From a virus, in the IMG/VR virus record IMGVR_UViG_3300023313_000005, positions 11,554-75,553 of that record: a DNA stretch of 64,000 bases; one strand, 5' to 3'. Of this stretch, positions 6,628-36,097 are shown piece by piece. A program made the position numbers and the translations under genes. Position 1 is the stretch's first letter; each line of letters begins with the position of its first letter. Below the pieces are notes generated by a model. It saw only the letters and a list, made by a program, of their open reading frames with translations, searched no databases and was not told the DNA's origin.

Positions 6628-6630
6628 TAT

Positions 6631-12638: not shown

Positions 12639-12836
12639 TACATTTTATTATTTTATATTTATTAATTGTTATAAATTTTGTACCATGACAATATTTACAA
12701 ACTTTATTATAACCATAATGTTCTAATATTTCGTCTATTGTATTCATGTATTGTCATATATTTGTTTATATAATAACCCGTTGTTATGAAATCATATTCA
12801 TTTTTTAAAAAATTAAATATTTGTTTATAACTTTTT

Positions 12837-21181: not shown

Positions 21182-22987
21182 TTAAAATAAAGTTAATTGT
21201 TTATTTTCAATTACGTTTATAATTTTATAACATTCTCTAATATAATAATTCATATTTATATTTTTTAAATAATTAATATTACTATCATAGTCATTTAATA
21301 TTGTAACATTAAAACCTGATTCAATAGCTTCTATACGTCCATCTTCGTGGTGTTTATACAATGAATTATTACTATTGGATATAATATATCTATTTGTTTT
21401 TTGTAATCGTTTATACCCCTTTAAAGTGTGTAATATAGTAGCCCATCCTTTAGTAGCTGTAAAACTTTTACAAAAATCAAATATGTTACATTCATTTAAT
21501 GATTGTTCTATTGGAATAGATTTTAAAAAATAATTACTAATTGCGATTCTTACTGCTTTCATAGAATGATTTTTATGCCAATCTCTTTCTATTTCAAAAG
21601 CACCTTTATATTTTATTTTGTTATCAATTGTACAAGCTATATAATTATTTACATCACGTATTATCATTTGTTTATAATTAACATATTCTAATTCTAAATT
21701 AGTTAATTTTTCCCATGATTTACATATTTGTATACATTTATTATATTCAGATTTTGGTAATAATATTGTTAATCCATCTGTATTAATTTGTAACATTGTT
21801 ACATCATATAATAAATCTACTATTTTTTCAGAAAGCATTGTTAATAATAACTGACCATTAATAGTAATGTTCATTGTAAATAATGGGTCATATAAAAAAC
21901 TATATTCACTATTAGATTTACCAAAAGATCCATTTAACGCAATTTTAATTACATAATTCTGAGGAGTACCTTTTTTAAATGTTTTTCTTATTTCATATTG
22001 TTGTTTATATATTTTACAAAATGCTAAACCTAAATGTTTAGGATAAAAATTATTACTAATAGCTAAGTTAGGATAATATGATTTTACATCAATATCTAAA
22101 ATCATATGAGTATTAGAATTAGAGTATCTTCCGGGTGAAATACAACCATGAATTCCTCCTGTACCAAATTCATATTTAAAATTTTTATATATTACATTTA
22201 AATTTTTAAATACTCCTTTTGTTTCGGTAATAATTTTATTTTTAAGAATTGATAGAAAATTGTTAAATTCTTTACTTGAATATTTAACATAAGGTAATAT
22301 ACAATCTTTTAATTTAATTTCTTTTCTATATGTACGTAATTGATTAATTGTTGATATACTAGTATTTAATTCTTCAGATAATAGTTTTTTAAAAATACTT
22401 TCACCTATACCTGCATCAGGTTTATTTAATACATTTATATTATATATTTTGCTAATTTCTTTTCTTAACTCAATTACAGGTAACGATTTTAAATAAAATT
22501 CATATGTTGAATCTACATCATTTATGCAATATTTTATTATATCAGGTATTTGGTGTTTTTCTATAATAGCATCGGGCGATAATGGTAAATCTTGAACTTT
22601 TTTCCAACGTAATGCTATTTGTATTTTTTTCAAACTAGTACGTTTGGCTTTATTATCAAAATGCCAAATTTTATATAAATCTATTTGAGGAATAATTACT
22701 TCTGATTCATATATTGATGAATATTTACTATTTATTATTTCTTTACTTTTATTATATAATCCTTTTATATTTCTTGTTTTTATTAAATAATGTAATAAAG
22801 GATAATCATAATTAATATTATTAAATCCTATTAATTGAATATCAGATAATAAAAATTTTATATATTCATCAAAGTCATTTTTACTGTCATGTAATATAAA
22901 TATTTTAGTTTCTTTAGTTTTTATATTAAAGAATATACCACAGTGGAAATTTTTAAATTGTTCTAAATCATATATATAAGTATCCAT
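21182..22987 (-). CDS. polB: Family B DNA polymerase (crAss-like)
   Basis: Exonuclease motifs YDLE, GFNNINYD and YCINDV; polymerase motifs DVKSYYP, KIALNGSFGK and QINTDG. Confidence 0.9.
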   Translation of the reverse strand: MDTYIYDLEQFKNFHCGIFFNIKTKETKIFILHDSKNDFDEYIKFLLSDIQLIGFNNINYDYPLLHYLIKTRNIKGLYNKSKEIINSKYSSIYESEVIIPQIDLYKIWHFDNKAKRTSLKKIQIALRWKKVQDLPLSPDAIIEKHQIPDIIKYCINDVDSTYEFYLKSLPVIELRKEISKIYNINVLNKPDAGIGESIFKKLLSEELNTSISTINQLRTYRKEIKLKDCILPYVKYSSKEFNNFLSILKNKIITETKGVFKNLNVIYKNFKYEFGTGGIHGCISPGRYSNSNTHMILDIDVKSYYPNLAISNNFYPKHLGLAFCKIYKQQYEIRKTFKKGTPQNYVIKIALNGSFGKSNSEYSFLYDPLFTMNITINGQLLLTMLSEKIVDLLYDVTMLQINTDGLTILLPKSEYNKCIQICKSWEKLTNLELEYVNYKQMIIRDVNNYIACTIDNKIKYKGAFEIERDWHKNHSMKAVRIAISNYFLKSIPIEQSLNECNIFDFCKSFTATKGWATILHTLKGYKRLQKTNRYIISNSNNSLYKHHEDGRIEAIESGFNVTILNDYDSNINYLKNINMNYYIRECYKIINVIENKQLTLF

Positions 22988-22999
22988 GTTTAAAATAAG

Positions 23000-23019
23000 A
23001 AAGGGGAATTACCCCCTTT
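23000..23019 (-). terminator. Probable intrinsic terminator
   Basis: AAAGGGG-AATTAC-CCCCTTT hairpin. Confidence 0.55.
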
Positions 23020-23076
23020 CTGTTTAAGTTAAATTAATAATTCATACACATTAAAATTAAAGAACATGTACGTTCT

Positions 23077-23364
23077 TTAATCTTTTCTTTTTTTTATTTT
23101 AATATTATGAATACGTGAACATACTCTTAAAAATGAAACATCGTCATCCTCAATCCAATATTTTATTAATAGTCTAGATTGTTTACTACTAATATGAAAA
23201 ATATTACTTAATTTTAATATTAATATATAATCATCTAATTTAGAATTATTATCTATGTAATTCCAAATTTCATCAGGATAAAATCGTATTTCTGAATAAT
23301 GATTATAGTAATAAATTAAATATAGTATTGCTATTAATAAAAAAGTTATAATTATTCCAATCAT
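23077..23364 (-). CDS. Small membrane-anchored protein; probable start MIGIIITF
   Basis: N-terminal hydrophobic helix. Confidence 0.55.
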   Translation of the reverse strand: MIGIIITFLLIAILYLIYYYNHYSEIRFYPDEIWNYIDNNSKLDDYILILKLSNIFHISSKQSRLLIKYWIEDDDVSFLRVCSRIHNIKIKKRKD

Positions 23365-23384
23365 TAATTTATTGTTTTTTATGT

Positions 23385-23429
23385 TTAATAAATTACATTT
23401 AAATAAAATTTTAATTTTGTATCTATCAT
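23385..23429 (-). pseudogene. Truncated terminal MID unit (MIDTKLKFYLNVIY*)
   Basis: Full junction motif AATATATTATGATAGATAC but only 14 codons. Confidence 0.55.
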
Positions 23430-23438
23430 AATATATTT

Positions 23439-23675
23439 TTATAATGAATTGAGTTCTTTCCATTTTCCCATAGACATAGACCCTTTATAACTATATTTTA
23501 ATCCGTATCCACTTCCCCAATTAGTACCTTTTCCACTTCCCTCTCCAGACCCATTCCCTATTCCGCCTGTTGAACAACATCCACTACCATCCATATATCT
23601 ATGTGTATAAAGATATTCTATATTATTCATATCTATAAGTATATTGTCTAATCTATCTATTGTAAAATCTATCAT
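23439..23675 (-). CDS. Array A peptide 18 (MIDFTIDRL)
   Basis: MID start, Gly-rich core. Confidence 0.75.
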   Translation of the reverse strand: MIDFTIDRLDNILIDMNNIEYLYTHRYMDGSGCCSTGGIGNGSGEGSGKGTNWGSGYGLKYSYKGSMSMGKWKELNSL

Positions 23676-23683
23676 ATTATTTT

Positions 23684-23941
23684 TTAATAAATTGAACTAT
23701 CTAAAATTAAAAATTCATTCCCAGTTCCAAGATCATGTCCCGTCCTTTCACTTTCACCATAATCTGCTATGTATAAATTTTCATGCTGAGTATTTACTAA
23801 ACTACAATCTATCCATCCTCCGTATTTATTTCCTCCACCTGTTCCGTGTCCCATAGAATTAATTTTTGGTGCGGTAGAACTTAAAAATAATACCCCTCTA
23901 GGATAACATTCCCCATAATCATTAATATTATAATCTATCAT
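23684..23941 (-). CDS. Array A peptide 17 (MIDYNINDYG)
   Basis: MID start, ATGA overlap. Confidence 0.75.
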   Translation of the reverse strand: MIDYNINDYGECYPRGVLFLSSTAPKINSMGHGTGGGNKYGGWIDCSLVNTQHENLYIADYGESERTGHDLGTGNEFLILDSSIY

Positions 23942-24192
23942 AATATACTAATTTCTTCTCCTTTTCCGATATCATAATGATAAATATATTTATCATTATA
24001 TGTACTTTCATATCCACATCCATATTTAGTTTCGTACGTGCATTGTATATATCCTAACCCACACCCATTTCCATTTTTCTCTCCATACTCAGATGAATTT
24101 CCACTTCCGTGCCCATTTCCATATCTATAACCTTGTCCATTTCCTCTTCCCCCATGTCCCGTTCCTTTATTATTAAGTCTTGTATCTATCAT
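23938..24192 (-). CDS. Array A peptide 16 (MIDTRLNNKG)
   Basis: MID...IL, Gly-rich. Confidence 0.8.
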   Translation of the reverse strand: MIDTRLNNKGTGHGGRGNGQGYRYGNGHGSGNSSEYGEKNGNGCGLGYIQCTYETKYGCGYESTYNDKYIYHYDIGKGEEISIL

Positions 24193-24386
24193 AATATATT
24201 TATATATTCATGTCCACATCCTTTTTCATCTATATATCCTATTCCATATCCACTTCCATATCCATCTTTTATTCCCTTTCCTAATCTATCTCCACCATCA
24301 TCTCCCACTCCTTGTCCATATCCATACCCATTGGCATTCCCGAATTCATACCAATTTCCATTATTATTAATATTATAATCTACCAT
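24189..24386 (-). CDS. Array A peptide 15 (MVDYNINNNG)
   Basis: MVD...IL, Gly-rich. Confidence 0.8.
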   Translation of the reverse strand: MVDYNINNNGNWYEFGNANGYGYGQGVGDDGGDRLGKGIKDGYGSGYGIGYIDEKGCGHEYINIL

Positions 24387-24685
24387 AATATATTGTTTAT
24401 ATATTCACATCCATCTCCATATCCACTTTCATGATTGTTTCCATATCCATTTCCGCACCCTTTTCTACAGCTATATCCATATCCATTTCCAAGTCCATCT
24501 CCATCTCCACATCCGTATCCTTTTCCATATCCTTTCCCATTTCCATATCCATTTCCATTTCCATCTCCATCTCCAAGTCCATCTCCATCTCCATCTCCAA
24601 ACCAATGCCTATATTTATTTCTATTACTATTTCCACATACTATTCTATATCCTTTTTCATTAATATCAAGTGTTGCGTCAATCAT
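24380..24685 (-). CDS. Array A peptide 14 (MIDATLDINEKG)
   Basis: MID...ILW, Gly-rich. Confidence 0.8.
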   Translation of the reverse strand: MIDATLDINEKGYRIVCGNSNRNKYRHWFGDGDGDGLGDGDGNGNGYGNGKGYGKGYGCGDGDGLGNGYGYSCRKGCGNGYGNNHESGYGDGCEYINNILW

Positions 24686-24921
24686 AATATATCAATTTCA
24701 TTTCCATTTCCGTTAATATATTTATTTATATAGTCATATACATAACCATATCCGTATCCATATCCATTTTCATTATTATCATTATTTTCTTCTCCGTATC
24801 CTTCTCCGTAATCATCCCCATAACCGTCTCCATGTCCACCTCCATATCCATGTCCTTTTTTATATCCAACATCATCAGAGAATATATAACATCCCCTATT
24901 ATTATATTCTATATCTATCAT
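24682..24921 (-). CDS. Array A peptide 13 (MIDIEYNNRG)
   Basis: MID...IL, Gly-rich. Confidence 0.8.
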   Translation of the reverse strand: MIDIEYNNRGCYIFSDDVGYKKGHGYGGGHGDGYGDDYGEGYGEENNDNNENGYGYGYGYVYDYINKYINGNGNEIDIL

Positions 24922-24924
24922 AAT

Positions 24925-25158
24925 TTATAAAACAAAAGGTTCTTTCCATTTCCCACGGTTATATCTATTCAATCCTATATTTTCACCATCTCCGACTCCT
25001 TGTCCATTACCTTTTCCACATTTATCTCCCCATCCACTACCTTCTCCACGTCCATTACCTTGACCATATTTATTACCTACTCTTATATCATAATGCATTC
25101 CATTATCAATTAAATGTGATTTTTTATATCCATTATCATTATATTTTGTATCTATCAT
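24925..25158 (-). CDS. Array A peptide 12 (MIDTKYNDNG)
   Basis: MID...VL, Gly-rich. Confidence 0.8.
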   Translation of the reverse strand: MIDTKYNDNGYKKSHLIDNGMHYDIRVGNKYGQGNGRGEGSGWGDKCGKGNGQGVGDGENIGLNRYNRGKWKEPFVL

Positions 25159-25295
25159 AATATATCATTTTCATACCCGTCCCCATACCCGGTTTCATTG
25201 TCATGTCCATCTTCACCACCATCTCCATGCCCATATTCATTTCCAAACCCATTTTCATATTCTATTCTATTATTAGTAAATGCTGTATCTATCAT
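25155..25295 (-). CDS. Array A peptide 11 (46 aa, MIDTAFTNNRIEY...ENDIL), not in the ORF track
   Basis: Manual translation; ATGA overlaps at both ends. Confidence 0.8.
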   Translation of the reverse strand: MIDTAFTNNRIEYENGFGNEYGHGDGGEDGHDNETGYGDGYENDIL

Positions 25296-25525
25296 AATGC
25301 GTTATTTTCATATCTTATTCCATAATTATTATATTTATAATTATATTCCTCTCCTCCACCATGTTTATTTCCATATCCATTCGCATGTCCTTTTCCATAC
25401 CCATTTCCGTCTTCAAATCCATATCCACTTCCTTCTCTATATCCCCCTCCTTCTCCATTTCTATATCCTATTTCATGTCCTATTTTATGTCCTGTTCCAA
25501 TATTATTAAAATTTACATCTATCAT
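25292..25525 (-). CDS. Array A peptide 10 (MIDVNFNNIG); start corrected from 25573
   Basis: The MID start overlaps the upstream stop. Confidence 0.8.
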   Translation of the reverse strand: MIDVNFNNIGTGHKIGHEIGYRNGEGGGYREGSGYGFEDGNGYGKGHANGYGNKHGGGEEYNYKYNNYGIRYENNAL

Positions 25526-25785
25526 GATATAGTATTTACATATCCGTAACCATTTCCATCTCCATATCCGCATCCATCTATATATCCGTATCCATTTGCA
25601 TATCCATATCCGTATCCTTTCCCATTTTCATATCCGTCCCCACATCCATATCCATTAATATCCCCATCCCCATTTCCATATCCATATCCATATCCATATC
25701 CATGTTTACTCTCACATCCGTGTCCTTTTCCGTATCCGTATCCTATTCCACTATCATTATTATTATTAAATTTTACATCTATCAT
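25522..25785 (-). CDS. Array A peptide 9 (MIDVKFNNNN)
   Basis: MID start, GY repeats. Confidence 0.8.
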   Translation of the reverse strand: MIDVKFNNNNDSGIGYGYGKGHGCESKHGYGYGYGYGNGDGDINGYGCGDGYENGKGYGYGYANGYGYIDGCGYGDGNGYGYVNTIS

Positions 25786-25961
25786 AATACATCGTTTATA
25801 TCCTCATTTCTATCGTTTCCGTATCCATCTCCACATCCATTCCCGTATCCATCCCCATATCCATATCCATATCCACTTCCATTTCTATCTCCTTGCCCAT
25901 ATTCGTATCCTCTTCCATATCCATATTCTATTCCGATATTACTAAAATTTGTATCTATCAT
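25782..25961 (-). CDS. Array A peptide 8 (59 aa, MIDTNFSNIGIEY...DINDVL), not in the ORF track
   Basis: Manual translation; ATGA overlaps at both ends. Confidence 0.8.
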   Translation of the reverse strand: MIDTNFSNIGIEYGYGRGYEYGQGDRNGSGYGYGYGDGYGNGCGDGYGNDRNEDINDVL

Positions 25962-26176
25962 AATATACGAATTTCTATTCCTATTCCATTTCTATTTTCA
26001 TGATTATATTCTTCTCCAAACATAAATCTTTTTCCAAATCCTTTTTTGAGTTCACTATCATACCATTTTGTATTTTCACTCCATTTTCCAAGTCTAGTAC
26101 TATATCCTGTTCCAGATTCCTCCCCTAATCTTTCTAAATAACTAAATCCCTTATTGTTAAAAGTTCTATCTATCAT
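25958..26176 (-). CDS. Array A peptide 7 (MIDRTFNNKG)
   Basis: MID...IL. Confidence 0.8.
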   Translation of the reverse strand: MIDRTFNNKGFSYLERLGEESGTGYSTRLGKWSENTKWYDSELKKGFGKRFMFGEEYNHENRNGIGIEIRIL

Positions 26177-26343
26177 AGTATAGTATAATTATTTCCATTC
26201 CCTTCTCCATATTCATTACCATGTCCTCCACCATGTCCGTGACCATACCCATTTCCATAATTATCTCCACATGACAATCCATATTTTATTTCAAATGTTA
26301 TTCCATATCCATTTCCATCAGTATTGATATTCATATCTATCAT
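26173..26343 (-). CDS. Array A peptide 6 (56 aa, MIDMNINTDG...YTIL), not in the ORF track
   Basis: Manual translation; ATGA overlaps at both ends. Confidence 0.8.
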   Translation of the reverse strand: MIDMNINTDGNGYGITFEIKYGLSCGDNYGNGYGHGHGGGHGNEYGEGNGNNYTIL

Positions 26344-26552
26344 AATATATCATTTATTTTTTCATAACTATGTCCATATCTATATCCATTTCCTTTACCA
26401 TATCCATTCCCATTTCCACATCCATTTTTATAATCGTCCCCATTTCTACTTCCGGATCCATATCCATATCCTCTTCCGTCTCCATAGCCATTTCCAAATC
26501 CAGATCCGTATCCATATCCAACACCATTAATATTAAGTTTTGTATTTATCAT
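26340..26552 (-). CDS. Array A peptide 5 (MINTKLNING)
   Basis: Gly-rich, ends INDIL. Confidence 0.8.
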   Translation of the reverse strand: MINTKLNINGVGYGYGSGFGNGYGDGRGYGYGSGSRNGDDYKNGCGNGNGYGKGNGYRYGHSYEKINDIL

Positions 26553-26565
26553 AGTACATAAATTT

Positions 26566-26844
26566 TTATTCTATATATATATCATCTCCTATACCATATC
26601 CATCTCCCGCACCATTCTTATATCCTTTCCCATTTCCATATATATTTCCTTTTCCATTTCCACATCCATTCCCGTCTCCACATCCATTTTTATCTCCATA
26701 TCCACATCCATTTCCAAACCCATTCCCGTACCCTATTCCATTTTCAGACTCGCTTCCATATCCATATCCTAATTTACTTCCATACCCATACCCTTCTCCA
26801 TATTCGTATTCTATTCCGGTATTGTTAAAATATGTATCTATCAT
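26566..26844 (-). CDS. Array A peptide 4 (MIDTYFNNTG)
   Basis: MID start, Gly-rich. Confidence 0.8.
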   Translation of the reverse strand: MIDTYFNNTGIEYEYGEGYGYGSKLGYGYGSESENGIGYGNGFGNGCGYGDKNGCGDGNGCGNGKGNIYGNGKGYKNGAGDGYGIGDDIYIE

Positions 26845-27041
26845 AATATATTATTTTTATCTCCATATCCATAACCATGTCCATTTCCATTTCCATTTCC
26901 ATATTTCTTTCCGTATTCATATGTATTTCCATACCCATATGCATTTCCTTTTCCATAATTATATCCAGTATTAGAACTATATCCATCTCCAAATCCATTT
27001 CTATATTCTATTCCAGTATTATTAAAACTTGTGTCTATCAT
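26841..27041 (-). CDS. Array A peptide 3 (MIDTSFNNTG)
   Basis: MID...IL. Confidence 0.8.
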   Translation of the reverse strand: MIDTSFNNTGIEYRNGFGDGYSSNTGYNYGKGNAYGYGNTYEYGKKYGNGNGNGHGYGYGDKNNIL

Positions 27042-27265
27042 AGTATATCATTTATACATCCATATCCACTTCCATCCTCATATCCATTTCCATCCCCACA
27101 TCCTTCTCCGTATCCATTTCCGTTTCCGTATTCATTGCCATATCCATTTCCATCCCCATTTTCATTTCCACATCCATTTCCGTACCCATATCCGTATCCT
27201 ATTCCATTTTCATATCCATATTCATCTTCACCATATCCATTAATATTAAGTTTTGTATCTATCAT
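27038..27265 (-). CDS. Array A peptide 2 (MIDTKLNING)
   Basis: MID...INDIL. Confidence 0.8.
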   Translation of the reverse strand: MIDTKLNINGYGEDEYGYENGIGYGYGYGNGCGNENGDGNGYGNEYGNGNGYGEGCGDGNGYEDGSGYGCINDIL

Positions 27266-27459
27266 AATATATTTTCATTTCCGCGTCCATACCCATATCC
27301 GTATCCATCTCCATTTCCTTGTCCATGTCCATGTCCATATCCCCCATATCCATTTCCGTGTCCCCTTCCATCTCCATTTCCATGTCTATTCCCAGATCCA
27401 TATTGACTATCATAACTGATTTTATGATGTCCTGTACTATTAAAATATATATCTATCAT
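27262..27459 (-). CDS. Array A peptide 1 (MIDIYFNSTG)
   Basis: MID...IL. Confidence 0.8.
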   Translation of the reverse strand: MIDIYFNSTGHHKISYDSQYGSGNRHGNGDGRGHGNGYGGYGHGHGQGNGDGYGYGYGRGNENIL

Positions 27460-27473
27460 AACTCATAAAATTA

Positions 27474-27499
27474 AAAGGGGAGATATTACTCTCCCCTTT
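27474..27499 (-). terminator. Terminator-like hairpin immediately upstream of array A
   Basis: AAAGGGGAGA-TATTAC-TCTCCCCTTT, a 10-bp stem followed by a T-rich tract on the minus strand. Confidence 0.7.
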
Positions 27500-27525
27500 A
27501 TTTGACTAAAATTTAGTGCATTGAC

Positions 27526-27933
27526 TTAAAGATTAATAGCAGTCTGAGCTTCACGTTCTCGGATTTGGTCTTCCATTTTCTGAATAATAGCATCTATGCT
27601 CTCTGCAGACTTAGATGATATCTTCCAATAAGGAATAGTAGAGAATTGTTCAACTGCCTCATCAGTCATTCTAATAACTTCTATGGCAGTCATACTATTT
27701 TGAATTACAGGCATTGTAAATTCACATTCAGAGGGTTTACTAGAACCTAAAGTAGCTAATTCTGATAGAGTATGAGCTCCTGCCCAAGACCTAATTCTTC
27801 TTGTTTTTTGGAGTGTTACATACATTCCATTTTTGGTATCTTTAACATTTACTAATTTACCAAAATGTACTCCTGCAGAGTATGTTCTTACAATTACTTG
27901 TTCGCCTAAATCTGGATGATTTGTGTTTTCCAT
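27526..27933 (-). CDS. Uncharacterised phage protein with a VIVRTYSAGVHFG motif
   Basis: VIVRTYSAGVHFG...RRIRSWAGA.TLSELA...IEVI pattern, recalled from small uncharacterised phage proteins. Confidence 0.75.
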   Translation of the reverse strand: MENTNHPDLGEQVIVRTYSAGVHFGKLVNVKDTKNGMYVTLQKTRRIRSWAGAHTLSELATLGSSKPSECEFTMPVIQNSMTAIEVIRMTDEAVEQFSTIPYWKISSKSAESIDAIIQKMEDQIREREAQTAINL

Positions 27934-27952
27934 GGTTTTTGTTTATTAATTA

Positions 27953-28219
27953 TTAATCAATTGAGTTCATCATTTTTTTAGTTACAGGATTATATTCCTG
28001 TTGTACTATTTTTATTACACATGGGGTATCTTCACTTGTTTTTACAGTAAAGTGATGACCATGCTCCACAATAACAGCCCCATTAGGTTCCAGAACTACT
28101 GTACCCATTTTTTCAAACTTCTTAATTACTTTTACATCAGTAGATTTCTTTAAATCCACATAATGTTCTCCATTACTGTGCTCCAGAATCAATTTCTGAT
28201 TTTCTTGTTCTGTATTCAT
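27953..28219 (-). CDS. Small His-motif protein, copy A (HGHH...QQEYNP)
   Basis: Paralog of 33951-34178. Confidence 0.8.
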   Translation of the reverse strand: MNTEQENQKLILEHSNGEHYVDLKKSTDVKVIKKFEKMGTVVLEPNGAVIVEHGHHFTVKTSEDTPCVIKIVQQEYNPVTKKMMNSID

Positions 28220-28235
28220 TTGTTTGTTTTTATGC

Positions 28236-28997
28236 TCAAGATTGAGCGGTTAATAATTCAAAATATGATTTTTTAGACATATGTATAGGATCTTCATTAG
28301 GTAAAGGTACTATTTTCTTATCCATTTCAAATAAGAATACATCTCCTTGACGTATAATACTTTTAATATGACCTTCCATAGATGGATAATACATACATAA
28401 ACTAGCAACTGCTTCTAAAGGAGATCCATTTTTAAAATGTTCAGGTACCCATAACCAATGTTCGTCATTAGTACTAGTACAATGACATCTAATTACAGGT
28501 ACTATAGGATCTTCTACTGCATCAGGATCTTGTAATTTTGTAATATCCACATGCCATAGTTCATACATTACATGATAATCTATTTCCTCCATCTTATCTA
28601 ATGTTTCATTATATACCCTATTGATAAGATGTTCTCCTTCAGTTTTTATTCTTTCTGAAGGTAAATTATCCATCATCTCTCTAATAGAAATAACTCCAAA
28701 TAAAGCAGCTCTATAGTTGCTATTTTTAATGCTAAATGCCTCTTGATAGGTATATTTATCAAAAGCATCCCAATAAGCCATTAATCCCTCTATATAAGCG
28801 GCTTCTTCAAATTCCCCATAAGTACAAATATCTTCAATCATAGGATCAAAGAATCTGGATTTAGCCCGTTTAAAATTATCATTGTACTTTGTTTTTAAAA
28901 ATCTTATGATTGTAGGATCTTTTAAGGTAGCATTATTCACCTGAAAAGTTTTACTCTCTGAGTAGTACGTAATACCTTCAATTGGTAATGTTTTCAT
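28236..28997 (-). CDS. CxC/RQGDV 'LTAQS' protein, copy A
   Basis: Paralog of 34183-35001 (CHCTSTNDEHWLWV, RQGDVF, YFELLTAQS). Confidence 0.8.
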   Translation of the reverse strand: MKTLPIEGITYYSESKTFQVNNATLKDPTIIRFLKTKYNDNFKRAKSRFFDPMIEDICTYGEFEEAAYIEGLMAYWDAFDKYTYQEAFSIKNSNYRAALFGVISIREMMDNLPSERIKTEGEHLINRVYNETLDKMEEIDYHVMYELWHVDITKLQDPDAVEDPIVPVIRCHCTSTNDEHWLWVPEHFKNGSPLEAVASLCMYYPSMEGHIKSIIRQGDVFLFEMDKKIVPLPNEDPIHMSKKSYFELLTAQS

Positions 28998-29030
28998 AAT
29001 TAATTAATCTGTTTGTGTTTATATCTGTAT

Positions 29031-29273
29031 TTATTTTTGTAAAATACCAAAAGAATCTCCGTTTCCTTTTGAAGTTGATAAATTTAATATTATTCCAGTT
29101 CCTACATCAGATTCATATTCAAGTCTATGTATATTTCCTTTTCCATTTCCTTTACCATCACCAATTCCTATCCCATCACCATCACCATATCCAGTTCCTT
29201 GGTTATATCCTAAACTATCTATTAATGAATCTAAACCTCCACGTCCAGTTTTTTTAAATTTATAATCTATCAT
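29031..29273 (-). CDS. Outlying MID Gly-rich peptide (MIDYKFKKTG)
   Basis: Same start motif and Gly-rich core as array A. Confidence 0.7.
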   Translation of the reverse strand: MIDYKFKKTGRGGLDSLIDSLGYNQGTGYGDGDGIGIGDGKGNGKGNIHRLEYESDVGTGIILNLSTSKGNGDSFGILQK

Positions 29274-29463
29274 TATTAAATGTAATAACTATTTTTTCTA
29301 TTCCATATCCAGGTCTAGATATTTGTTCTTTGCATTCGTTATTTAAATCATGTGTAACTGAAGCTTCAATTATAATATTTCTGATAATTTTATGTTGACT
29401 CACATAATAAGAAACTTCAGAATCTACAAAACTTCCGAAATTAGTAAAGTTTATATCTATCAT
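29260..29463 (-). CDS. Outlying diverged MID peptide (MIDINFTNFG); start corrected from 29505
   Basis: Junction TGTATATTATGATAGAT. Confidence 0.6.
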   Translation of the reverse strand: MIDINFTNFGSFVDSEVSYYVSQHKIIRNIIIEASVTHDLNNECKEQISRPGYGIEKIVITFNNDRL

Positions 29464-29473
29464 AATATACATA

Positions 29474-29611
29474 TTATTTTTGAGTACGTAATCTTTCCAC
29501 CTCATTCTCCATTACCTGAAGTAACTTCTGAAGTTGGTTGTACGTTGGTAGGTCGTTGTAAGATAGTGATAATTCCACACCATCTCTTTCAAAGGTTATC
29601 TTGTTTTTCAT
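29474..29611 (-). CDS. Hypothetical 45-aa protein (MKNKITFERDG)
   Basis: Manual translation; fills the gap on the coding strand. Confidence 0.5.
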   Translation of the reverse strand: MKNKITFERDGVELSLSYNDLPTYNQLQKLLQVMENEVERLRTQK

Positions 29612-29647
29612 TCTATAACTCTTTTGTCATTACATCTAAGTTTGAGA

Positions 29648-29905
29648 CTACACAAGCTCAAAATACCTCTCAAATTCCCAAACAACCCAATCTCTTTTAC
29701 TTCTTGATAGCTTTGATTTTTTCTGTTGGATTAATTCGTATTCTTTCACAATATCAACCGATAACATTTGTTTTGACCTTTTATCATAAAAGTCAGTAAA
29801 ACCAAAAGCGGCACTCATAGTTAATATAGTTGTCATTGTTTTACTTATCGGTTTCCTTTTTGGGAGTTCTCTTTCCCTGTATTTCAATCCGTTTATTTCT
29901 ATCAT
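29648..29905 (-). CDS. Hypothetical protein
   Basis: 85-aa coupled ORF. Confidence 0.65.
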   Translation of the reverse strand: MIEINGLKYRERELPKRKPISKTMTTILTMSAAFGFTDFYDKRSKQMLSVDIVKEYELIQQKKSKLSRSKRDWVVWEFERYFELV

Positions 29906-30102
29906 TTCACAACTCTTTTAATATTTCCTCTATTTATTAATTCTTGACATTCTTCAAGAGTTCCTTGACAATCAATAAATTCTATATGTTTTACTCTCCA
30001 TGCAAAATATCCATCTGTTTTTAAATCCCTAAATCTATTAGGAAATCTACTTACTTGGATTCCGAATTTACCATTTTCAAATTCTACTATTCTTGGTTTC
30101 AT
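29902..30102 (-). CDS. Hypothetical protein
   Basis: 66-aa ORF with an A-rich initiation region. Confidence 0.6.
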   Translation of the reverse strand: MKPRIVEFENGKFGIQVSRFPNRFRDLKTDGYFAWRVKHIEFIDCQGTLEECQELINRGNIKRVVK

Positions 30103-30112
30103 TTGTTTTGTT

Positions 30113-30289
30113 TTAATATTTTAAATCTTCTGTAATTATATCTATAACTACCATTAATAATACTATAAATAATACTACCCGAATCCGAAACAATGTATCT
30201 AAATCTGTTATATTTATATCATTTTTGAGGAATATTACAAGAATTAGAGAAATTCCTACTACTGATAGGTATTTGATTAGTTTTTTCAT
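30113..30289 (-). CDS. Small two-TM membrane protein (58 aa, MKKLIKYLSVVG)
   Basis: Manual translation; paralog of 30294-30467. Confidence 0.7.
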   Translation of the reverse strand: MKKLIKYLSVVGISLILVIFLKNDINITDLDTLFRIRVVLFIVLLMVVIDIITEDLKY

Positions 30290-30293
30290 CTTA

Positions 30294-30467
30294 TTAATCT
30301 ATATCTTTTGTTATTACAGCTGTGAGGATTATAAATAGCGCTGTAAATGCTATCATTGCAAATCTATCAAAAGGAGATGATTCCATTATATTAGTGTCAC
30401 CTTTGATGAATATTATAAGAAGTAAGGTAAGCCCTACTACTGATAGGTATTTGATTAGCTTTCTCAT
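30294..30467 (-). CDS. Small two-TM membrane protein (57 aa, MRKLIKYLSVVG)
   Basis: Manual translation; ATGA overlap with the upstream gene. Confidence 0.7.
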   Translation of the reverse strand: MRKLIKYLSVVGLTLLLIIFIKGDTNIMESSPFDRFAMIAFTALFIILTAVITKDID

Positions 30468-30736
30468 TCCTTTTTGTCTTTAATGAATACTTTTAATGTT
30501 CTTCCCTCGTCTTGTAAACTCAACTCTACTTCGCAATGCTTGTTTTTGTTTACGTATTTTCTGCCTTTCGGGTCTATCACCTCTACTCTGGTGACTTCGC
30601 TTAATTCTACTAGCGTTCCTTTCACCACCCAATCTTCAAAGCCGTCAAACTCCGCACAGCTTCTTTCCATTTCTTCCAACTCCTCCTCTGTGACTAGACG
30701 AAGTTCGTTGTCTGATAGTTCAATTAGTATCTTCAT
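30464..30736 (-). CDS. Hypothetical protein
   Basis: 90-aa ORF. Confidence 0.65.
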   Translation of the reverse strand: MKILIELSDNELRLVTEEELEEMERSCAEFDGFEDWVVKGTLVELSEVTRVEVIDPKGRKYVNKNKHCEVELSLQDEGRTLKVFIKDKKE

Positions 30737-30883
30737 TTTGTTTTGTTTTTTAAACTAACACGTTGTATGTGGTCTGAACGTCTTGACAAGCATAATAATA
30801 AATGTCTGCAGTTCCCGTTCGTGTTGCCTCATATTAACATTGTTTATACGCCATGCTGCGCACGGGCGCATACACGGGTGTTA

Positions 30884-31183
30884 TCAACAAGGTGGTTTGC
30901 ACCATTCTTTTACTATCATATTTTCAAAGTTGTATTTCCAGCAATTATCATTTTCCCACCATTCATTAATTCCGTATTTACCATTTTCGTATTTAACAAA
31001 CACTTGTTTGTCATCAGTAGGTAAGGCATCTTTAATCGCTACCCAATTGCTAATATGTGGTATAGATAATTGCTCTATACAGTGGTTTATTAATTCGTGT
31101 AAAGTCCAGTAACTATCGCAGTTGTTGTCTATTTTTTCAACTGGGTTTATTCCCATTTCTTCTAATAATTTTCTTGTTGTCAT
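30884..31183 (-). CDS. Small phage protein with a DUF551-like C-terminus
   Basis: NWVAIKDALP...VKEW. Confidence 0.55.
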   Translation of the reverse strand: MTTRKLLEEMGINPVEKIDNNCDSYWTLHELINHCIEQLSIPHISNWVAIKDALPTDDKQVFVKYENGKYGINEWWENDNCWKYNFENMIVKEWCKPPC

Positions 31184-31195
31184 TTTGGTTTTATT

Positions 31196-31441
31196 TTAAA
31201 GTTCAACTCTTTTTTTGTAGTAAATCTCGTCCGTGATTCCATCCTCCAACTCTATCACTAAGACAATGTCCTCACCCCTTTCCTCTCTGGTCACAGAAAG
31301 CACCCCCACATCTTCACTGATTAGCCGCCCGTCCAATGTTTCCACGATGGTGGGCATATCTATTATCTGATCTCGCTTGAAGTGCTCCTCGTGGAAGACT
31401 ACTCCGTCTGTGGTTATTCGTTTGTATGGGCTTATATCCAT
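31196..31441 (-). CDS. Hypothetical protein
   Basis: 81-aa ORF. Confidence 0.6.
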   Translation of the reverse strand: MDISPYKRITTDGVVFHEEHFKRDQIIDMPTIVETLDGRLISEDVGVLSVTREERGEDIVLVIELEDGITDEIYYKKRVEL

Positions 31442-31959
31442 GATGATTTTTCAATTAATTCCTTATGGAATTCTGCAAACTTTTTTGCTCTTTTTTTTGT
31501 TGGGAAAGCAAGGAATGATATTTTATCGCGTGTTTCTAGAATCTCATAACTTGGCTCCCCACAAATAGGTAGTATTATAGATTTAGCTGTTTTATCGTAC
31601 CATTCTAAATTCTTTTCTTCTTCCCAATTTGGACTCCAATCTCCATTATAATCAGCTACCAATTGGGATAGCATGGCTTTGGCAATACTAGCTTCTGCTT
31701 GCTTTCTTGTTTTGAATATATTACCATCATTATCAGTTCTGCGTGGAATACCTATTGGATAAATATTACTAAAAGCATCTATCCAATACCCTCCTACTTT
31801 TTCTAACTCTTCCCGAGTCTTTAATTTCCCTTCTTGTGGCTCTTCCTTGAGTGTCTTTAACACCCTCTCCAATTCTGGAATATCTTTTTTTGAAACTGTG
31901 ATTTTGACTGTGTCGGTATTCAATTCTGTTACTTTCATGTTATTTGTTTTTGATTGCAT
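31432..31959 (-). CDS. Hypothetical phage protein
   Basis: 175-aa ORF with YNGDWSPNW motif. Confidence 0.65.
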   Translation of the reverse strand: MQSKTNNMKVTELNTDTVKITVSKKDIPELERVLKTLKEEPQEGKLKTREELEKVGGYWIDAFSNIYPIGIPRRTDNDGNIFKTRKQAEASIAKAMLSQLVADYNGDWSPNWEEEKNLEWYDKTAKSIILPICGEPSYEILETRDKISFLAFPTKKRAKKFAEFHKELIEKSSWI

Positions 31960-32527
31960 TTTCTAAATGTAAAAAGTACGCTTTATATGCTTTGTACATT
32001 GCTTCTATTCTGATAAATTCTTCTGTACCTCTTTTTGTTTCAAATTCGTCATCACCCTTAAACCATTCATCCCATTGTTCAATAGTTTTGCATTCACATC
32101 CAATTTTTATTTTATTATTCACTATACCAAAACTCCATTTTGAGTAAATAGGCATAATTGCATTACTTATATCTGCTCTACGAAGGTTTACCCCGTCAAA
32201 GTTTACTCCACGAAGGTCTGATTCACGAAGGTCTGCTTCATCGAGGATTGATTCACAAAGGTTTGCTCCACGAAGGTCTGCTCTGTAAAGGTTTGCTCCA
32301 CGAAAATCTACTCTACGAAGGTTGGTTTCATAAAGATTTGCTCCACGAAGGTTAGCTTCATAAAAGTTGGCTTCAAAAAGGTTGGCTCCACAAAAATTTG
32401 CTTCAAAAAGATTGGCCCCATGAAAGTCTGCCCCACGGAGGTCAGCTCTACGCAAGTAGGCTCCTATTAATGTATCGCCTTCAATTTCTTTTAATACTTT
32501 TCCGTTAAAATCTTTAATTTGTATCAT
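31940..32527 (-). CDS. Pentapeptide repeat protein
   Basis: A(D/N)(L/F)xx repeats; C-terminal IKIGC...W domain. Confidence 0.9.
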   Translation of the reverse strand: MIQIKDFNGKVLKEIEGDTLIGAYLRRADLRGADFHGANLFEANFCGANLFEANFYEANLRGANLYETNLRRVDFRGANLYRADLRGANLCESILDEADLRESDLRGVNFDGVNLRRADISNAIMPIYSKWSFGIVNNKIKIGCECKTIEQWDEWFKGDDEFETKRGTEEFIRIEAMYKAYKAYFLHLENAIKNK

Positions 32528-32582
32528 GACTTTTTGATTACATTTTTTAATGTAATAAATATATCAACAATATTTATTTATA

Positions 32583-32735
32583 TTACAATTCATAACTTAA
32601 TATATGTTTATATTTAATATGAGTATAAGGCGTAAACATTGAATTAAATTTATTTGCAATCATTATAGTAAATTTTAAATTTGGATAATCAAGTCTAGTA
32701 CGTGCTTTACAATCTTTGAGTATTACCAGTTTCAT
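32583..32735 (-). CDS. Array B peptide 9 (MKLVILKDCK...SYEL)
   Basis: Manual translation, 50 aa. Confidence 0.75.
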   Translation of the reverse strand: MKLVILKDCKARTRLDYPNLKFTIMIANKFNSMFTPYTHIKYKHILSYEL

Positions 32736-32881
32736 AGTTTATAAGTTTTTTTAGATTCGTATATAATATGACTATAGGGTAAATATACTGAATAATATCT
32801 AGTAGATATTATTATATTGTATGGTTCATTATAATAACTAATACTTTTTGCTTTACAATTTTTAAGTATAATTAATTTCAT
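32732..32881 (-). CDS. Array B peptide 8 (MKLIILKNCK...TYKL)
   Basis: Manual translation, 49 aa. Confidence 0.75.
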   Translation of the reverse strand: MKLIILKNCKAKSISYYNEPYNIIISTRYYSVYLPYSHIIYESKKTYKL

Positions 32882-33030
32882 AGCTCATAAAAATTTTTAG
32901 ATTTGTATCTAATACGACTATAAGGTAAATATAATGAATGATATGCATCAGATATTATTATATCATATGGCATAAAATATTGACTGAGTGTATTTATTGT
33001 TTTACAATCTCTAAATATTATTAACTTCAT
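32878..33030 (-). CDS. Array B peptide 7 (MKLIIFRDCK...FYEL)
   Basis: Manual translation, 50 aa. Confidence 0.75.
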   Translation of the reverse strand: MKLIIFRDCKTINTLSQYFMPYDIIISDAYHSLYLPYSRIRYKSKNFYEL

Positions 33031-33170
33031 GGCCAATAAAAGGTTATACTTTTATAATATATCTTAAAATAAGGAGTATAAAATATCTTATATCTAAAAT
33101 CTATATAAAGGTTAGAATCATCTGGTTTATTAGTATGAAATTCACAATTTTTAATTACAATTAGTCTCAT
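33027..33170 (-). CDS. Array B peptide 6 (MRLIVIKNCE...FYWP)
   Basis: Manual translation, 47 aa. Confidence 0.75.
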   Translation of the reverse strand: MRLIVIKNCEFHTNKPDDSNLYIDFRYKIFYTPYFKIYYKSITFYWP

Positions 33171-33307
33171 AAGTAATAAGTAGTTATAGTTTTAAATTTA
33201 ATTTTATAGCGAGAAAAACAAAATATATTATTTTGTAATACTATAGGGTAAGTTACGTATTTAAGTTCATTAGCTAGTTTACAGTCTTTAAGTGTTATTA
33301 GTTTCAT
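33167..33307 (-). CDS. Array B peptide 5 (MKLITLKDCK...TYYL)
   Basis: Manual translation, 46 aa. Confidence 0.75.
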   Translation of the reverse strand: MKLITLKDCKLANELKYVTYPIVLQNNIFCFSRYKIKFKTITTYYL

Positions 33308-33450
33308 ACCATATGAATTTTCATTTTTTCACCTTTTATACAAAAATTAAAAGTGTATAATGTTATAAATTGATAATCTAAAAGTACACTATAAAATATA
33401 GATGAATGATAATCATGTATTACACAATTTTTTATTATTATTAATCTCAT
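33304..33450 (-). CDS. Array B peptide 4 (MRLIIIKNCV...IHMV)
   Basis: Manual translation, 48 aa. Confidence 0.75.
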   Translation of the reverse strand: MRLIIIKNCVIHDYHSSIFYSVLLDYQFITLYTFNFCIKGEKMKIHMV

Positions 33451-33602
33451 AATTGATACATTTTACAATTTCCAAATTTTACATTTTTAATACTTATTAA
33501 TGCATATGAAGTAGTAGATACATGATATTTATAGCATATAAGATCTACAAAAGGTAAATATTGAGTAAAATCTTCATTTATAGGAATTACTATTAAATTC
33601 AT
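33447..33602 (-). CDS. Array B peptide 3 (MNLIVIPINE...MYQL)
   Basis: Manual translation, 51 aa. Confidence 0.75.
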   Translation of the reverse strand: MNLIVIPINEDFTQYLPFVDLICYKYHVSTTSYALISIKNVKFGNCKMYQL

Positions 33603-33748
33603 AACTCATATTTGTTAGAATAACTATACATAATACAAATATCACTTAGGTATAAAAGATAATTATTACTACATAGATCTGAATTTAATACAATATTTGA
33701 AATAGAAGAAGTAATATCGGCATATTTATTTAATAGTACTAAAGTCAT
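33599..33748 (-). CDS. Array B peptide 2 (MTLVLLNKYA...KYEL)
   Basis: Manual translation, 49 aa. Confidence 0.75.
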   Translation of the reverse strand: MTLVLLNKYADITSSISNIVLNSDLCSNNYLLYLSDICIMYSYSNKYEL

Positions 33749-33894
33749 AATTCATATCTATTAGAATATTTATATGTAATGCAAATATTACCTATATATA
33801 AAAGATAAATATCACTATATAGATCTGAAATTAACCTATCGTTTGATGAAAGCATAAAAATATCATCATATTTATTTAATATTACTAAAGTCAT
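33745..33894 (-). CDS. Array B peptide 1 (MTLVILNKYD...RYEL); start corrected from 33954
   Basis: 49 aa; close paralog of peptide 2. Confidence 0.75.
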   Translation of the reverse strand: MTLVILNKYDDIFMLSSNDRLISDLYSDIYLLYIGNICITYKYSNRYEL

Positions 33895-33912
33895 ATTTTG
33901 TTGTGTTGTAAT

Positions 33913-33943
33913 AAAAAGGTGCAGAGAATTTCCCCACACCTTT
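33913..33943 (-). terminator. Imperfect terminator-like hairpin upstream of array B
   Basis: AAAGGTG...CACCTTT inverted repeat with a T-tract on the minus strand. Confidence 0.45.
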
Positions 33944-33950
33944 AACCCTA

Positions 33951-34178
33951 TCAATCAAATGCATCCTGTAACATTTTAGTTACAGGGTTCAGCTCTTGTT
34001 GAGTATATTTAATGATGTTTTCACTTTCTGTTTTTAATGTCCCATGCTCGCCATGGGTTACTATTCCGTTACTACCTGTTTTGATGAGAAGAGCACCTTT
34101 ATACTCCTCACTAACAATGTCCCCTTTTACCTCTAAAGTATGAGGATGGGTAGACTTTTGAATTATTAATTTTTCCAT
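33951..34178 (-). CDS. Small His-motif protein, copy B (HPH...HGEH...QQELNP); start MEKLIIQK
   Basis: Paralog of 27953-28219. Confidence 0.8.
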   Translation of the reverse strand: MEKLIIQKSTHPHTLEVKGDIVSEEYKGALLIKTGSNGIVTHGEHGTLKTESENIIKYTQQELNPVTKMLQDAFD

Positions 34179-34182
34179 TATA

Positions 34183-35001
34183 TTAAGATTGTGCTGTGAG
34201 TAATCCAAAATACTCATCAGCTGTTAAACTTCTTTTTTTGGGGTTGTAAGATATTAAATCTTTTAGTTCTTCAATATCTTTATCATATTCTGTGATAAAA
34301 ACATCTCCTTGACGTTTTATCTCTTTGATGTAAGGAATAACTGATTCATGAAAGACTGCCGTAGATGCTATGGCTGTTAAAGCACTATTGTCTTCAGGTT
34401 TATTTACCCAAAGATAATGCTCTTCATTAGTAGTGGTACACCAGCACTTAACTACATATAGTTTATTAGTACTAAATTTAGTTCCATCAACTTCTAGTAA
34501 TTCATAAACTACATGGTAATCTTTCATACCGGTAAAATTACCTTCATAATCGAATGTTTTATGAGTTACTTCCTTACCTCCTACATCTATAGTAGTATAA
34601 CCCATACCCTCTATCAATTCTTTTACATCCAACAATTCAAATACTAAAATTTGAAAGGCATTATTTTTGATTTCGAATGCCTCTTTAAATGTTATAGGAG
34701 GAATATCCTCCCACATATCTAATAGTATCTCTACTTTAGACACACAACTTTTAAAAATGTTAGCACCTTCTATTTCTTCTCCTTCGGCTATTTTCTTGTC
34801 AATTTTTTCAGGGAGCTCTCGGAATTTGTTTATAATAGTATTTTCAAATTCTTTCTTAGTTCCCTTCAACTTATAATATTGGATAAGTTCTTTTTTTGTA
34901 ATACCTATCCAAATATCAGTTGTTGCCTCGTATTTTAATTCTGATGTTACCTCTATGATATGGAGGTTTTTTAACTTACGAAGTTTATTTTCATCTTTCA
35001 T
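34183..35001 (-). CDS. CxC/RQGDV 'LTAQS' protein, copy B
   Basis: CWCTTTNEEHYLWV, RQGDVF and YFGLLTAQS. Confidence 0.8.
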   Translation of the reverse strand: MKDENKLRKLKNLHIIEVTSELKYEATTDIWIGITKKELIQYYKLKGTKKEFENTIINKFRELPEKIDKKIAEGEEIEGANIFKSCVSKVEILLDMWEDIPPITFKEAFEIKNNAFQILVFELLDVKELIEGMGYTTIDVGGKEVTHKTFDYEGNFTGMKDYHVVYELLEVDGTKFSTNKLYVVKCWCTTTNEEHYLWVNKPEDNSALTAIASTAVFHESVIPYIKEIKRQGDVFITEYDKDIEELKDLISYNPKKRSLTADEYFGLLTAQS

Positions 35002-35020: not shown

Positions 35021-35716
35021 TTAATATAAAAAAGATATATGTTGTCTAATATTAAATTTAGAATCTTCTATTAATAATAAACATTGATTAGAATTTATTA
35101 AAGTATCTATAAAAATATAGTCTTTATCTAATTCTATATTATCTCTTTTTGTATGACCTACTACTTGAATATAATCATCTATTCCATACAATTTTAAAGA
35201 TCTAGGACGTATCCATAAAGGTCCTGCGAGTTGTGAATCACCATGCGGATCAACACCTCTAAATGTAAATGATAGAGGTTTATATTTAAATAGTTCATTT
35301 AAATCAAATGCTATGGTGTCGGATTTAGGATTTATACCTACATTTTCACACCAAATTTTACTTACTCCCGCATGAGTAAACAAATAATAATCATATTCAT
35401 AAGCTATTTGAAATAATTCTAAATTATCAGTAATTAATTTTTGTATCTCAAATGCTGAAGATTGATATCCTGAATAACGCTCATTAATATTTGGGAAATA
35501 GTGATAGTCATGATTTCCAATTAATAAAATTGTATTATCAAAATTATCATTTTTATATTTTAATATTTCCTTAAAATTATGAACTTGTTCTACTAAACTA
35601 TGATTAAAACTATCAAAATAGTCACCAATAAATATTACTTTATCAGGATTTGTTTTCTCAATGTGATCCTTCCATTTAGTACAGCCATGGATATCACCAA
35701 TAACTAATGTTTTCAT
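35021..35716 (-). CDS. Calcineurin-like metallophosphoesterase
   Basis: GDIHG, GDYFD, GNHD, THAG and GHT. Confidence 0.92.
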   Translation of the reverse strand: MKTLVIGDIHGCTKWKDHIEKTNPDKVIFIGDYFDSFNHSLVEQVHNFKEILKYKNDNFDNTILLIGNHDYHYFPNINERYSGYQSSAFEIQKLITDNLELFQIAYEYDYYLFTHAGVSKIWCENVGINPKSDTIAFDLNELFKYKPLSFTFRGVDPHGDSQLAGPLWIRPRSLKLYGIDDYIQVVGHTKRDNIELDKDYIFIDTLINSNQCLLLIEDSKFNIRQHISFLY

Positions 35717-35964: not shown

Positions 35965-35979
35965 AATTTTTAAAATTTG

Positions 35980-36064
35980 TACCCGGAGCGGGACTTGAAC
36001 CCGCACGAGCGCAATGCTCATTGGATTTTAAGTCCAACGTGTCTACCAATTCCACCATCTGGGC
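35980..36064 (-). tRNA. tRNA-Leu (anticodon UAA)
   Basis: GCCCAGA/TCCGGGT acceptor stem, TGGTA D-loop, TTGGA-CTTAAAA-TCCAA anticodon arm, long variable arm, GTTCAAG T-loop. Confidence 0.95.
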
Positions 36065-36074
36065 AAATTAATAA

Positions 36075-36097
36075 AAAGGGGGAGTAATTCCCCCTTT
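36075..36097 (-). terminator. Intrinsic terminator
   Basis: AAGGGGGA-GTAAT-TCCCCCTT hairpin with a T-tract. Confidence 0.65.

Follow-up and report, generated by a model that had tools for sequence, protein, structure and literature searches.

Two diverged core–His gene pairs, each beside its own array of small paralogous genes, in the genome of a probable Bacteroidota phage

We analysed 64,000 nucleotides of viral DNA (the window), bases 11554–75553 of the 75.5-kb IMG/VR virus record IMGVR_UViG_3300023313_000005, and describe a minus-strand block at 23–36 kb in which one gene order occurs twice: a core gene, a gene for a small histidine-motif protein (the His partner), a terminator-like hairpin and a translationally coupled array of short paralogous open reading frames (ORFs) (Table 1). 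This doubled architecture had been proposed from the letters of the sequence alone, and every ORF of that original prediction is recovered where it was placed. The block is flanked on one side by a DNA polymerase gene (21182–22987) and on the other by large, divergently oriented plus-strand ORFs; G+C content in the window ranges from 21 to 38%. The two cores are paralogs (35% identity over 192 residues, E = 5e-34), as are the two His partners (35% identity, E = 9e-12), and the arrays, of 9 and 18 units, belong to unrelated families, all as anticipated. Across the whole 75.5-kb record, arrays of small paralogous ORFs occur at the coreA and coreB sites only.

Some particulars of the original prediction change. 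The 135-aa gene that it regarded as an extra component of one copy is present, and it encodes a DUF6948 protein (score 69 bits, gathering cut-off 27; E = 3.8e-19; 2–84 of the 85 profile positions covered) whose look-alikes in the Atlas are DUF6948 clusters. Array B does have 18 units downstream, and to these we add two units of the same MID type upstream of coreB, one of which (29031–29273) clusters with array B by BLASTP while the other (29260–29463) was assigned by eye from its MIDINF start. Because these two units sit upstream of coreB, the coreB–HisB–DUF6948 block is embedded in the array-B family.

Table 1. Features of the minus-strand block, in window coordinates
Feature	Position	Strand	Description
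coreA	34183-35001	-	272 aa; uncharacterised phage family
HisA	33951-34178	-	75 aa from ATG at 34178; coreA partner
Terminator-like hairpin A	33915-33943	-	13-bp stem, then UUUUUAUU
Array A	32583-33894	-	9 translationally coupled paralogs, 46-51 aa
MID-type units (two)	29260-29463 and 29031-29273	-	just upstream of coreB
coreB	28236-28997	-	253 aa; B-subtype core
HisB	27953-28219	-	88 aa; coreB partner
DUF6948 protein	27526-27933	-	135 aa; Pfam PF22253
Terminator-like hairpin B	27474-27499	-	10-bp stem and U-tract
Array B	23439-27459	-	18 translationally coupled genes, 46-101 aa
ORF with hydrophobic stretch	23077-23463	-	128 aa; precedes the hairpin closing the array-B block
Terminator-like hairpin closing the array-B block	22998-23021	-	after the 128-aa ORF

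The only sequencing run that contains this DNA is a microbial-mat metagenome, with no RNA run listed, and such a mat is probably the source of the phage DNA. All 17 cellular relatives of the core belong to Bacteroidota (Flavobacterium, Kordia, Tenacibaculum, Chryseobacterium, Chitinophagales, Pedobacter and others), and on this ground the host of the phage is probably a member of that phylum.

We find that the core and its His partner form a conserved functional pair. The core is built of a variable N-terminal hairpin and helical domain followed by a conserved C-terminal beta domain with the motifs CWCTTTNxEHWLW and RQGD, and its family comprises 101 close homologues and 452 cluster representatives at 50% identity, almost all of them viral; tblastn with coreA, coreB and a core of the second clade described below, and megablast of the region, return no match in GenBank phages. 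Core and His-partner genes are neighbours in 60 of 80 viral loci and 15 of 17 bacterial ones, and two proteins, P0125 and P0203, are natural in-frame fusions of the two. Such fusions are rare, since a search with the His part of P0125 returned P0125 alone. Residues E167, C188, T191, E194, H195, W198, R230, G232, D233, Y264 and F265 are invariant in the core, as are H13, H42, H45, Q60, E62, N64, P65 and a C-terminal D in the His partner (the three histidines among 27 His partners); HisB carries an HGHH variant that is common to the relatives at loci L031, L033 and L036 (L numbers denote the loci of core relatives and, as L101, of one further phage). AlphaFold2 models are confident for the core alone (predicted local distance difference test, pLDDT, 88.5) and for the P0125 fusion (pLDDT 91.1, predicted TM-score 0.82). 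Gene adjacency, natural fusions, the confident fusion model and the invariant residues together support the view that core and His partner are one unit, and the invariant His, Cys and Glu make it reasonable to suppose that the two probably share a metal site.

In our searches the predicted structures of this unit show no convincing resemblance to a known fold. Foldseek returns no match in the PDB at E ≤ 0.001 for the core or for the P0125 fusion model, and the best Z-scores of a wide VIA-align search, 5.9 with the core as query and 4.6 with the fusion, extend over just 50–60 residues or so. A sequence profile search of the PDB with the His partner gives nothing at E = 10, and in the His-partner and fusion searches we see no sequence or fold match to the cupins, an example of beta-barrel proteins with a mono-metal, three-histidine site. 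The nearest likeness is to DUF6745 (PF20530; e.g., in Microcystis phage LMM01), a weak similarity of predicted structures over about 110–140 residues (BFVD Foldseek E = 4.7e-4, Atlas TM 0.39) with no sequence match in Pfam.

A maximum-likelihood tree of 67 distinct cores resolves two clades, and the two window copies fall among different core subtypes: coreA clusters with cores associated with MORN genes, and coreB with those of L031, L033 and L036, all of which adjoin DUF6948. The copies are thus not a recent duplication, nor do the two modules make the duplicated system of the original prediction; instead, the tree indicates that coreA and coreB are anciently diverged subtypes. Arrays are distributed very unevenly over this tree. 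They occur in none of the 37 rows of clade II, whereas in 17 of the 30 rows of clade I, both window copies counted, small-paralog genes of the repeat type or of other kinds are found near the core, and 13 are array-free. The clade-I neighbours include MORN_2 arrays identified with Pfam (L003–L007, L013, L016, L026 and L030), Gly-X arrays (L018, L031/32/34), MORN-like 'MKL' mini-proteins (L009) and LRR-like (leucine-rich repeat-like) proteins (L025). The nearest array gene is within 260 bp of the core (12–254 bp) in 9 of 13 array-bearing loci, and in about 12 non-redundant loci arrays, of at least four unrelated families in all, lie at a distance of 12–450 bp from the core.

In total, 50 of the 67 distinct cores have no array nearby, and the core pair does not need arrays. 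The original prediction had itself held that a scarcity of arrays beside core homologues would speak against it; since most homologues are array-free, the strict reading of core and arrays as a dedicated system fails. The opposite extreme is that cores and arrays are merely juxtaposed, with no physical or functional link, the surroundings of a conserved gene pair being a permissive site that expands and contracts like an accordion. Genes of many kinds sit beside the pair or between its two members (GIY-YIG-like, MORN, Gly-X, LRR-like and others), as this would lead one to expect, and the arrays vary in position too, lying upstream of, downstream of or inside the pair, with most loci having none. 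We nonetheless hold this to be a real but doubtful possibility, as both arrays of the genome abut the two copies of the pair, array genes sit so close to the core in most array-bearing loci, and both the bacterial repeat-domain fusions and the complex model presented below connect such proteins to the core itself.

In clade II the core and His genes are often split by GIY-YIG-like and other genes, which looks like homing-endonuclease traffic at the core–His junction. At L049, L050, L056, L063–L066 and L075 the intervening genes recognised by eye are GIY-YIG-like and encode 190–240 aa (MTGIYKITSPTGKIYIGQS..., MWKIYKLHTS...), and the same junctions hold a conserved gene of about 75–115 aa (..AGFKAGQAY..). 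In clade I, the MORN_2-filled locus L013 contains two diverged cores (10001–10681 and 12490–13092) and 53 small paralogous ORFs in 20 kb, alternative frames included. A literature search on MORN and phage returned nothing relevant.

Array B is best understood together with the DUF6948 gene that precedes it. Each of the 18 units runs from an ATG and a conserved MIDxxFNNxG start through a (Gly-X)n body to a stop codon, and 14 of the 17 junctions are ATGA overlaps. The bodies are imperfect hexanucleotide repeats, (NAT-GGA)n with a period of 6, and these hexamers account for the Gly/Tyr/Asn/Asp/His-rich composition (G 26%, N 12%, Y 12%) and for the skew toward GGA (272 of 352 Gly codons). Period-6 repeats, GGA skew and the openness of the other frames and of the opposite strand could also mean that array B is non-coding simple-sequence DNA, its ORFs being by-products of the repeats. 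This we consider extremely improbable, given that start, stop and overlap are so regularly kept, and that unrelated phages keep the (Gly-X)n frame while using other Gly codons, the gene following DUF6948 in every case. The preferred Gly codon is GGA in the window and GGT in L031, with mixed usage in L018, and the (Gly-X)n pattern is therefore kept, or selected, at the level of the protein.

In the set of about 100 loci, small ORFs whose Gly content is 25% or more are restricted to those bearing DUF6948 (the window, L018, L031/32/34 and L036), and none is found in the roughly 90 other loci; one locus, L033, has DUF6948 and no Gly-rich small ORF. Three cultured phages without a core pair show the same pairing. 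The ORF next after DUF6948 is (Gly-X)n, and rich in Tyr, Asp, Asn and Ser, in Pectobacterium phage Koroua, Ralstonia phage NK-7 and Chlorobiaceae phage CV-1-33, and that of NK-7 is annotated as 'fibroin heavy chain-like protein'. The window shares this same-strand order, DUF6948 followed by array B, and differs from the cultured phages in having 18 downstream and 2 upstream copies, a hairpin between DUF6948 and the array, and a link to a B-subtype core and its His partner. From these sequence comparisons, DUF6948 and (Gly-X)n form an independent two-gene phage module, of which array B would be a 20-fold amplification of the partner gene, and the link of the module to the B-subtype core pair is confined to this phage group. 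A literature search on DUF6948 and DUF6745 found no paper, and the Gly-X pair itself was not searched for. In CV-1-33, the deposited coding sequence of gene_25 (L101, 3786–4031) reads (Ala-Met)n and an overlapping frame reads (Gly-X)n; the annotated frame is probably wrong.

The conserved N-termini and variable bodies of the array units bring two known kinds of small-protein locus to mind. In T4, the internal protein loci encode capsid-targeted proteins whose N-terminal tag is cleaved by the prohead protease. By analogy, the N-terminal decapeptide here could be a packaging tag and the bodies injected anti-defence proteins, and a conserved start of about 10 residues on variable small proteins in a plastic region would suit such a role. 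The idea is very improbable in our judgement: it leaves the adjacency to the core pair unexplained, and in other phages the Gly-X partners begin with different N-termini and are invariably found after DUF6948. The second comparison is with clusters for ribosomally synthesized and post-translationally modified peptides (RiPPs), in which the arrays would be precursor peptides, each a short leader ahead of a hypervariable core, and the core pair, with its invariant His and Cys, a new metal-dependent modifying enzyme. Conserved N-termini of about 10 residues ahead of variable bodies are again suggestive, yet the simple-repeat bodies of 46–101 aa are unlike known precursor cores, peptide genes are absent from the surroundings of most core pairs, Gly-X follows DUF6948 elsewhere without a core pair, and searches of Pfam, PHROGs and NCBIfam with nine proteins of the region (core, His partner and DUF6948 protein included) reveal no family of RiPP enzymes, recognition elements, proteases or exporters. 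We regard a RiPP-like cluster as highly improbable.

Array A has a different character. Its units are of the MKLIILKNCK...YEL type with 24–57% mutual identity, and a profile search of 5.8 billion proteins finds no relative outside their own contig; the array is an orphan, lineage-specific family of mini-proteins of about 49 aa. Its alignment is too variable for a scan of the loci. Comparison with the L009 mini-protein family shows no profile similarity (hhalign probability 2.7%). The MORN_2 (PF07661, YwqK-like) mini-gene arrays beside core homologues are likewise translationally coupled rows of small, diversified paralogs; unlike the arrays of L007, L013 and L026, however, the two window units compared, array-A unit 32732–32881 and array-B unit 26566–26844, give no MORN_2 match at E up to 0.1.

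Complex prediction was carried out with three chains, using coreA, HisA and array-A alignments and scoring the peptide as partner. The array-A/coreA complex reaches a median ipSAE of 0.63 (runs of 0.63, 0.70 and 0.01), compared with 0.11 for the best control; 58 of 80 solved complexes attain the ipSAE mark applied, as do 2 of 110 mismatched pairs. The runs have at least 12% of contacts in common, and the partner pLDDT is at least 34. In the predicted interface, the conserved residues 1–9 of the array-A peptide contact coreA residues 4–33 and 59–83, that is, its N-terminal hairpin and helices. These models, of a kind that the original prediction had proposed as a check, support docking of array-A peptides on the N-terminal domain of coreA.

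Hairpins precede both arrays, as had been noted, and both fold better than shuffled sequences. Hairpin A (−15.9 kcal/mol, z = −3.5) ends 20 nt before the first array-A ATG, and hairpin B (z = −3.9) ends 14 nt before that of array B, leaving no room there for a separate sigma-70-type promoter. With the hairpin that closes the array-B block, they have the G+C-rich hairpin and U-tract of predicted intrinsic (rho-independent) terminators; overall, 23 terminator-like sites are found where shuffles give 2.9. The order core, terminator-like hairpin, array is also that of L005 and L007. Because the arrays start directly after terminator-like hairpins, read-through transcription from the core operons is most likely, and the arrays are probably expressed in this way at a lower level than the cores.

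Outside viruses the core gene is rare, being present in 1 of 301 sampled genomes of one bacterial family, namely the query genome (G001). In Kordia, Tenacibaculum, Chryseobacterium and other Flavobacteriales we find, in order, an SDR-like (short-chain dehydrogenase/reductase-like) gene, a His-partner gene and a gene for a protein of about 640 aa that joins a Recep_L/LRR-like repeat domain, at the N-terminus, to the core; at L088–L091, L093–L095 and L098 the SDR-like protein has 453 aa and the His partner 74 aa. The SDR gene matches generic SDR families only. Downstream of its core and His genes, Flavobacterium caseinilyticum (L084) encodes an LRR_4 protein. Through these fused or neighbouring LRR-like domains, the variable N-terminal side of the core is associated with binding domains of the repeat type in cells as well. 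Two further observations concern these loci: in Tenacibaculum (L089), an ABC/AAA_21-type ATPase gene with PADLOC mad3 and AriA-like hits lies just downstream, and in L084 a single 554-aa ORF upstream of the core (6010–7674) combines a DnaA ATPase (E = 2.5e-44) with an FtsZ/tubulin GTPase and FtsZ_C, and is either an unusual fusion or an ORF-calling artefact.

These results can be set against the proposal that core and peptide library make up one system, in which both arrays would be the interchangeable cargo of one machine, the core pair, which would modify or chaperone them or assemble with them. The proposal is partly borne out: the pair is conserved, arrays recur next to clade-I cores in several lineages, the same order occurs twice in a genome that has such arrays nowhere else, the array-A model passes its controls, bacterial cores carry LRR-like fusions, and B-subtype core, His partner, DUF6948 and Gly-X remain linked through rearranged orders in four to five lineages. 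Against it stand array B, which tracks DUF6948 and is paired with it in phages that lack the core pair, the array-free majority of cores, clade II in its entirety among them, the want of relatives of array A elsewhere, and the terminator-like hairpins between cores and arrays. We judge a dedicated system of this kind quite unlikely.

The explanation that we put first, and to which we would give an even chance, is a composite in which the conserved core–His pair, possibly a hub, anchors a hyperplastic accessory region and a small gene has been amplified beside each copy. Two anciently diverged copies of the pair would serve as the anchors, each a core of about 250 aa and a partner of about 75 aa that would form one folding unit, probably metal-binding. 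Beside each, one small accessory gene would have multiplied into a tandem series of translationally coupled relatives, array B diversifying probably by hexanucleotide-repeat slippage and unequal crossing-over, and both arrays would be transcribed by read-through of the hairpins from the core operons. The variable N-terminal domain of the core may dock small partner proteins, which here would be those of array A and in relatives could be MORN_2 or LRR-like proteins; in bacteria the LRR-like domain is fused.

Several points weigh against this composite. The docking is a result of modelling, one of its three runs scored 0.01 and the fold of the array-A peptide itself is uncertain; the N-terminal hairpin that the peptide is predicted to contact occurs in all cores, array or no array; and Pfam, PHROG, NCBIfam and PADLOC contain no family for the core or the His partner. 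Several of the array-bearing clade-I loci are, moreover, phylogenetically related. What remains, at a weight reduced by that kinship, is a recurrent positional link of arrays with the core pair within clade I.

A bolder version of the composite gives the pair a task. Core and His partner would be a constant, metal-dependent effector or hub, and interchangeable repeat-protein adaptors would aim it at different host targets. Such adaptors, docking on the N-terminal domain, would be the array-A mini-proteins in this phage, MORN_2 or LRR-like proteins in its relatives and the fused LRR-like domain in Bacteroidota. The bacterial LRR fusion is the best independent argument for this proposal, which we offer tentatively and think rather unlikely.

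Other genes of the block deserve brief mention. Directly after array A on the same strand lies a gene for a 195-aa pentapeptide-repeat protein (31940–32527; PF00805, E = 4e-33), a further repeat-type protein of the block, and immediately upstream of coreA, also on the minus strand, one for a calcineurin-like metallophosphoesterase (35021–35716; PF00149, E = 3.8e-12). A tRNA-Leu gene (anticodon TAA; 35979–36064, minus strand) is located just upstream of the block containing coreA, beside a bidirectional terminator-like hairpin (36075–36097). Two adjacent, paralogous minus-strand ORFs of about 57 aa with hydrophobic stretches (30113–30289 and 30294–30467; MKKLIKYLSVVG...) are the sole other small paralog pair of the genome.

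Tandem amplification of accessory genes is already known in phages, and plastic regions of T4-type phages and amplification of poxvirus K3L are examples of hyperplastic or accordion-like loci in large DNA viruses. By analogy, the region described here resembles these in that conserved anchors flank sites at which small accessory genes would insert, amplify and diverge, and in the homing-endonuclease-like genes found at the same junction in clade II. It is unlike known accordions in having two unrelated families amplified, each beside a copy of the same conserved pair. New here are the core–His family, as a unit with a confidently predicted fold that is unmatched in our searches, the clade-I core neighbourhood with its amplified small-gene families, and the LRR fusions in bacteria.

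The core–His proteins are a large, unannotated phage family with an invariant set of His, Cys and Glu residues, and so offer a clean target for structural and biochemical work. The 20-copy Gly-X amplification would be an extreme case of a widespread and unstudied DUF6948 phage module. Should the link between cores and arrays prove merely positional, the amplification of accessory genes beside conserved phage anchors would still be well illustrated here. The recurrent amplified neighbours, together with the bacterial LRR fusions, make the hypothesis of a constant hub with exchangeable adaptors directly testable; if true, it would provide a phage counterpart of 'constant enzyme plus variable receptor' systems, with a fold unmatched among solved structures in our searches.

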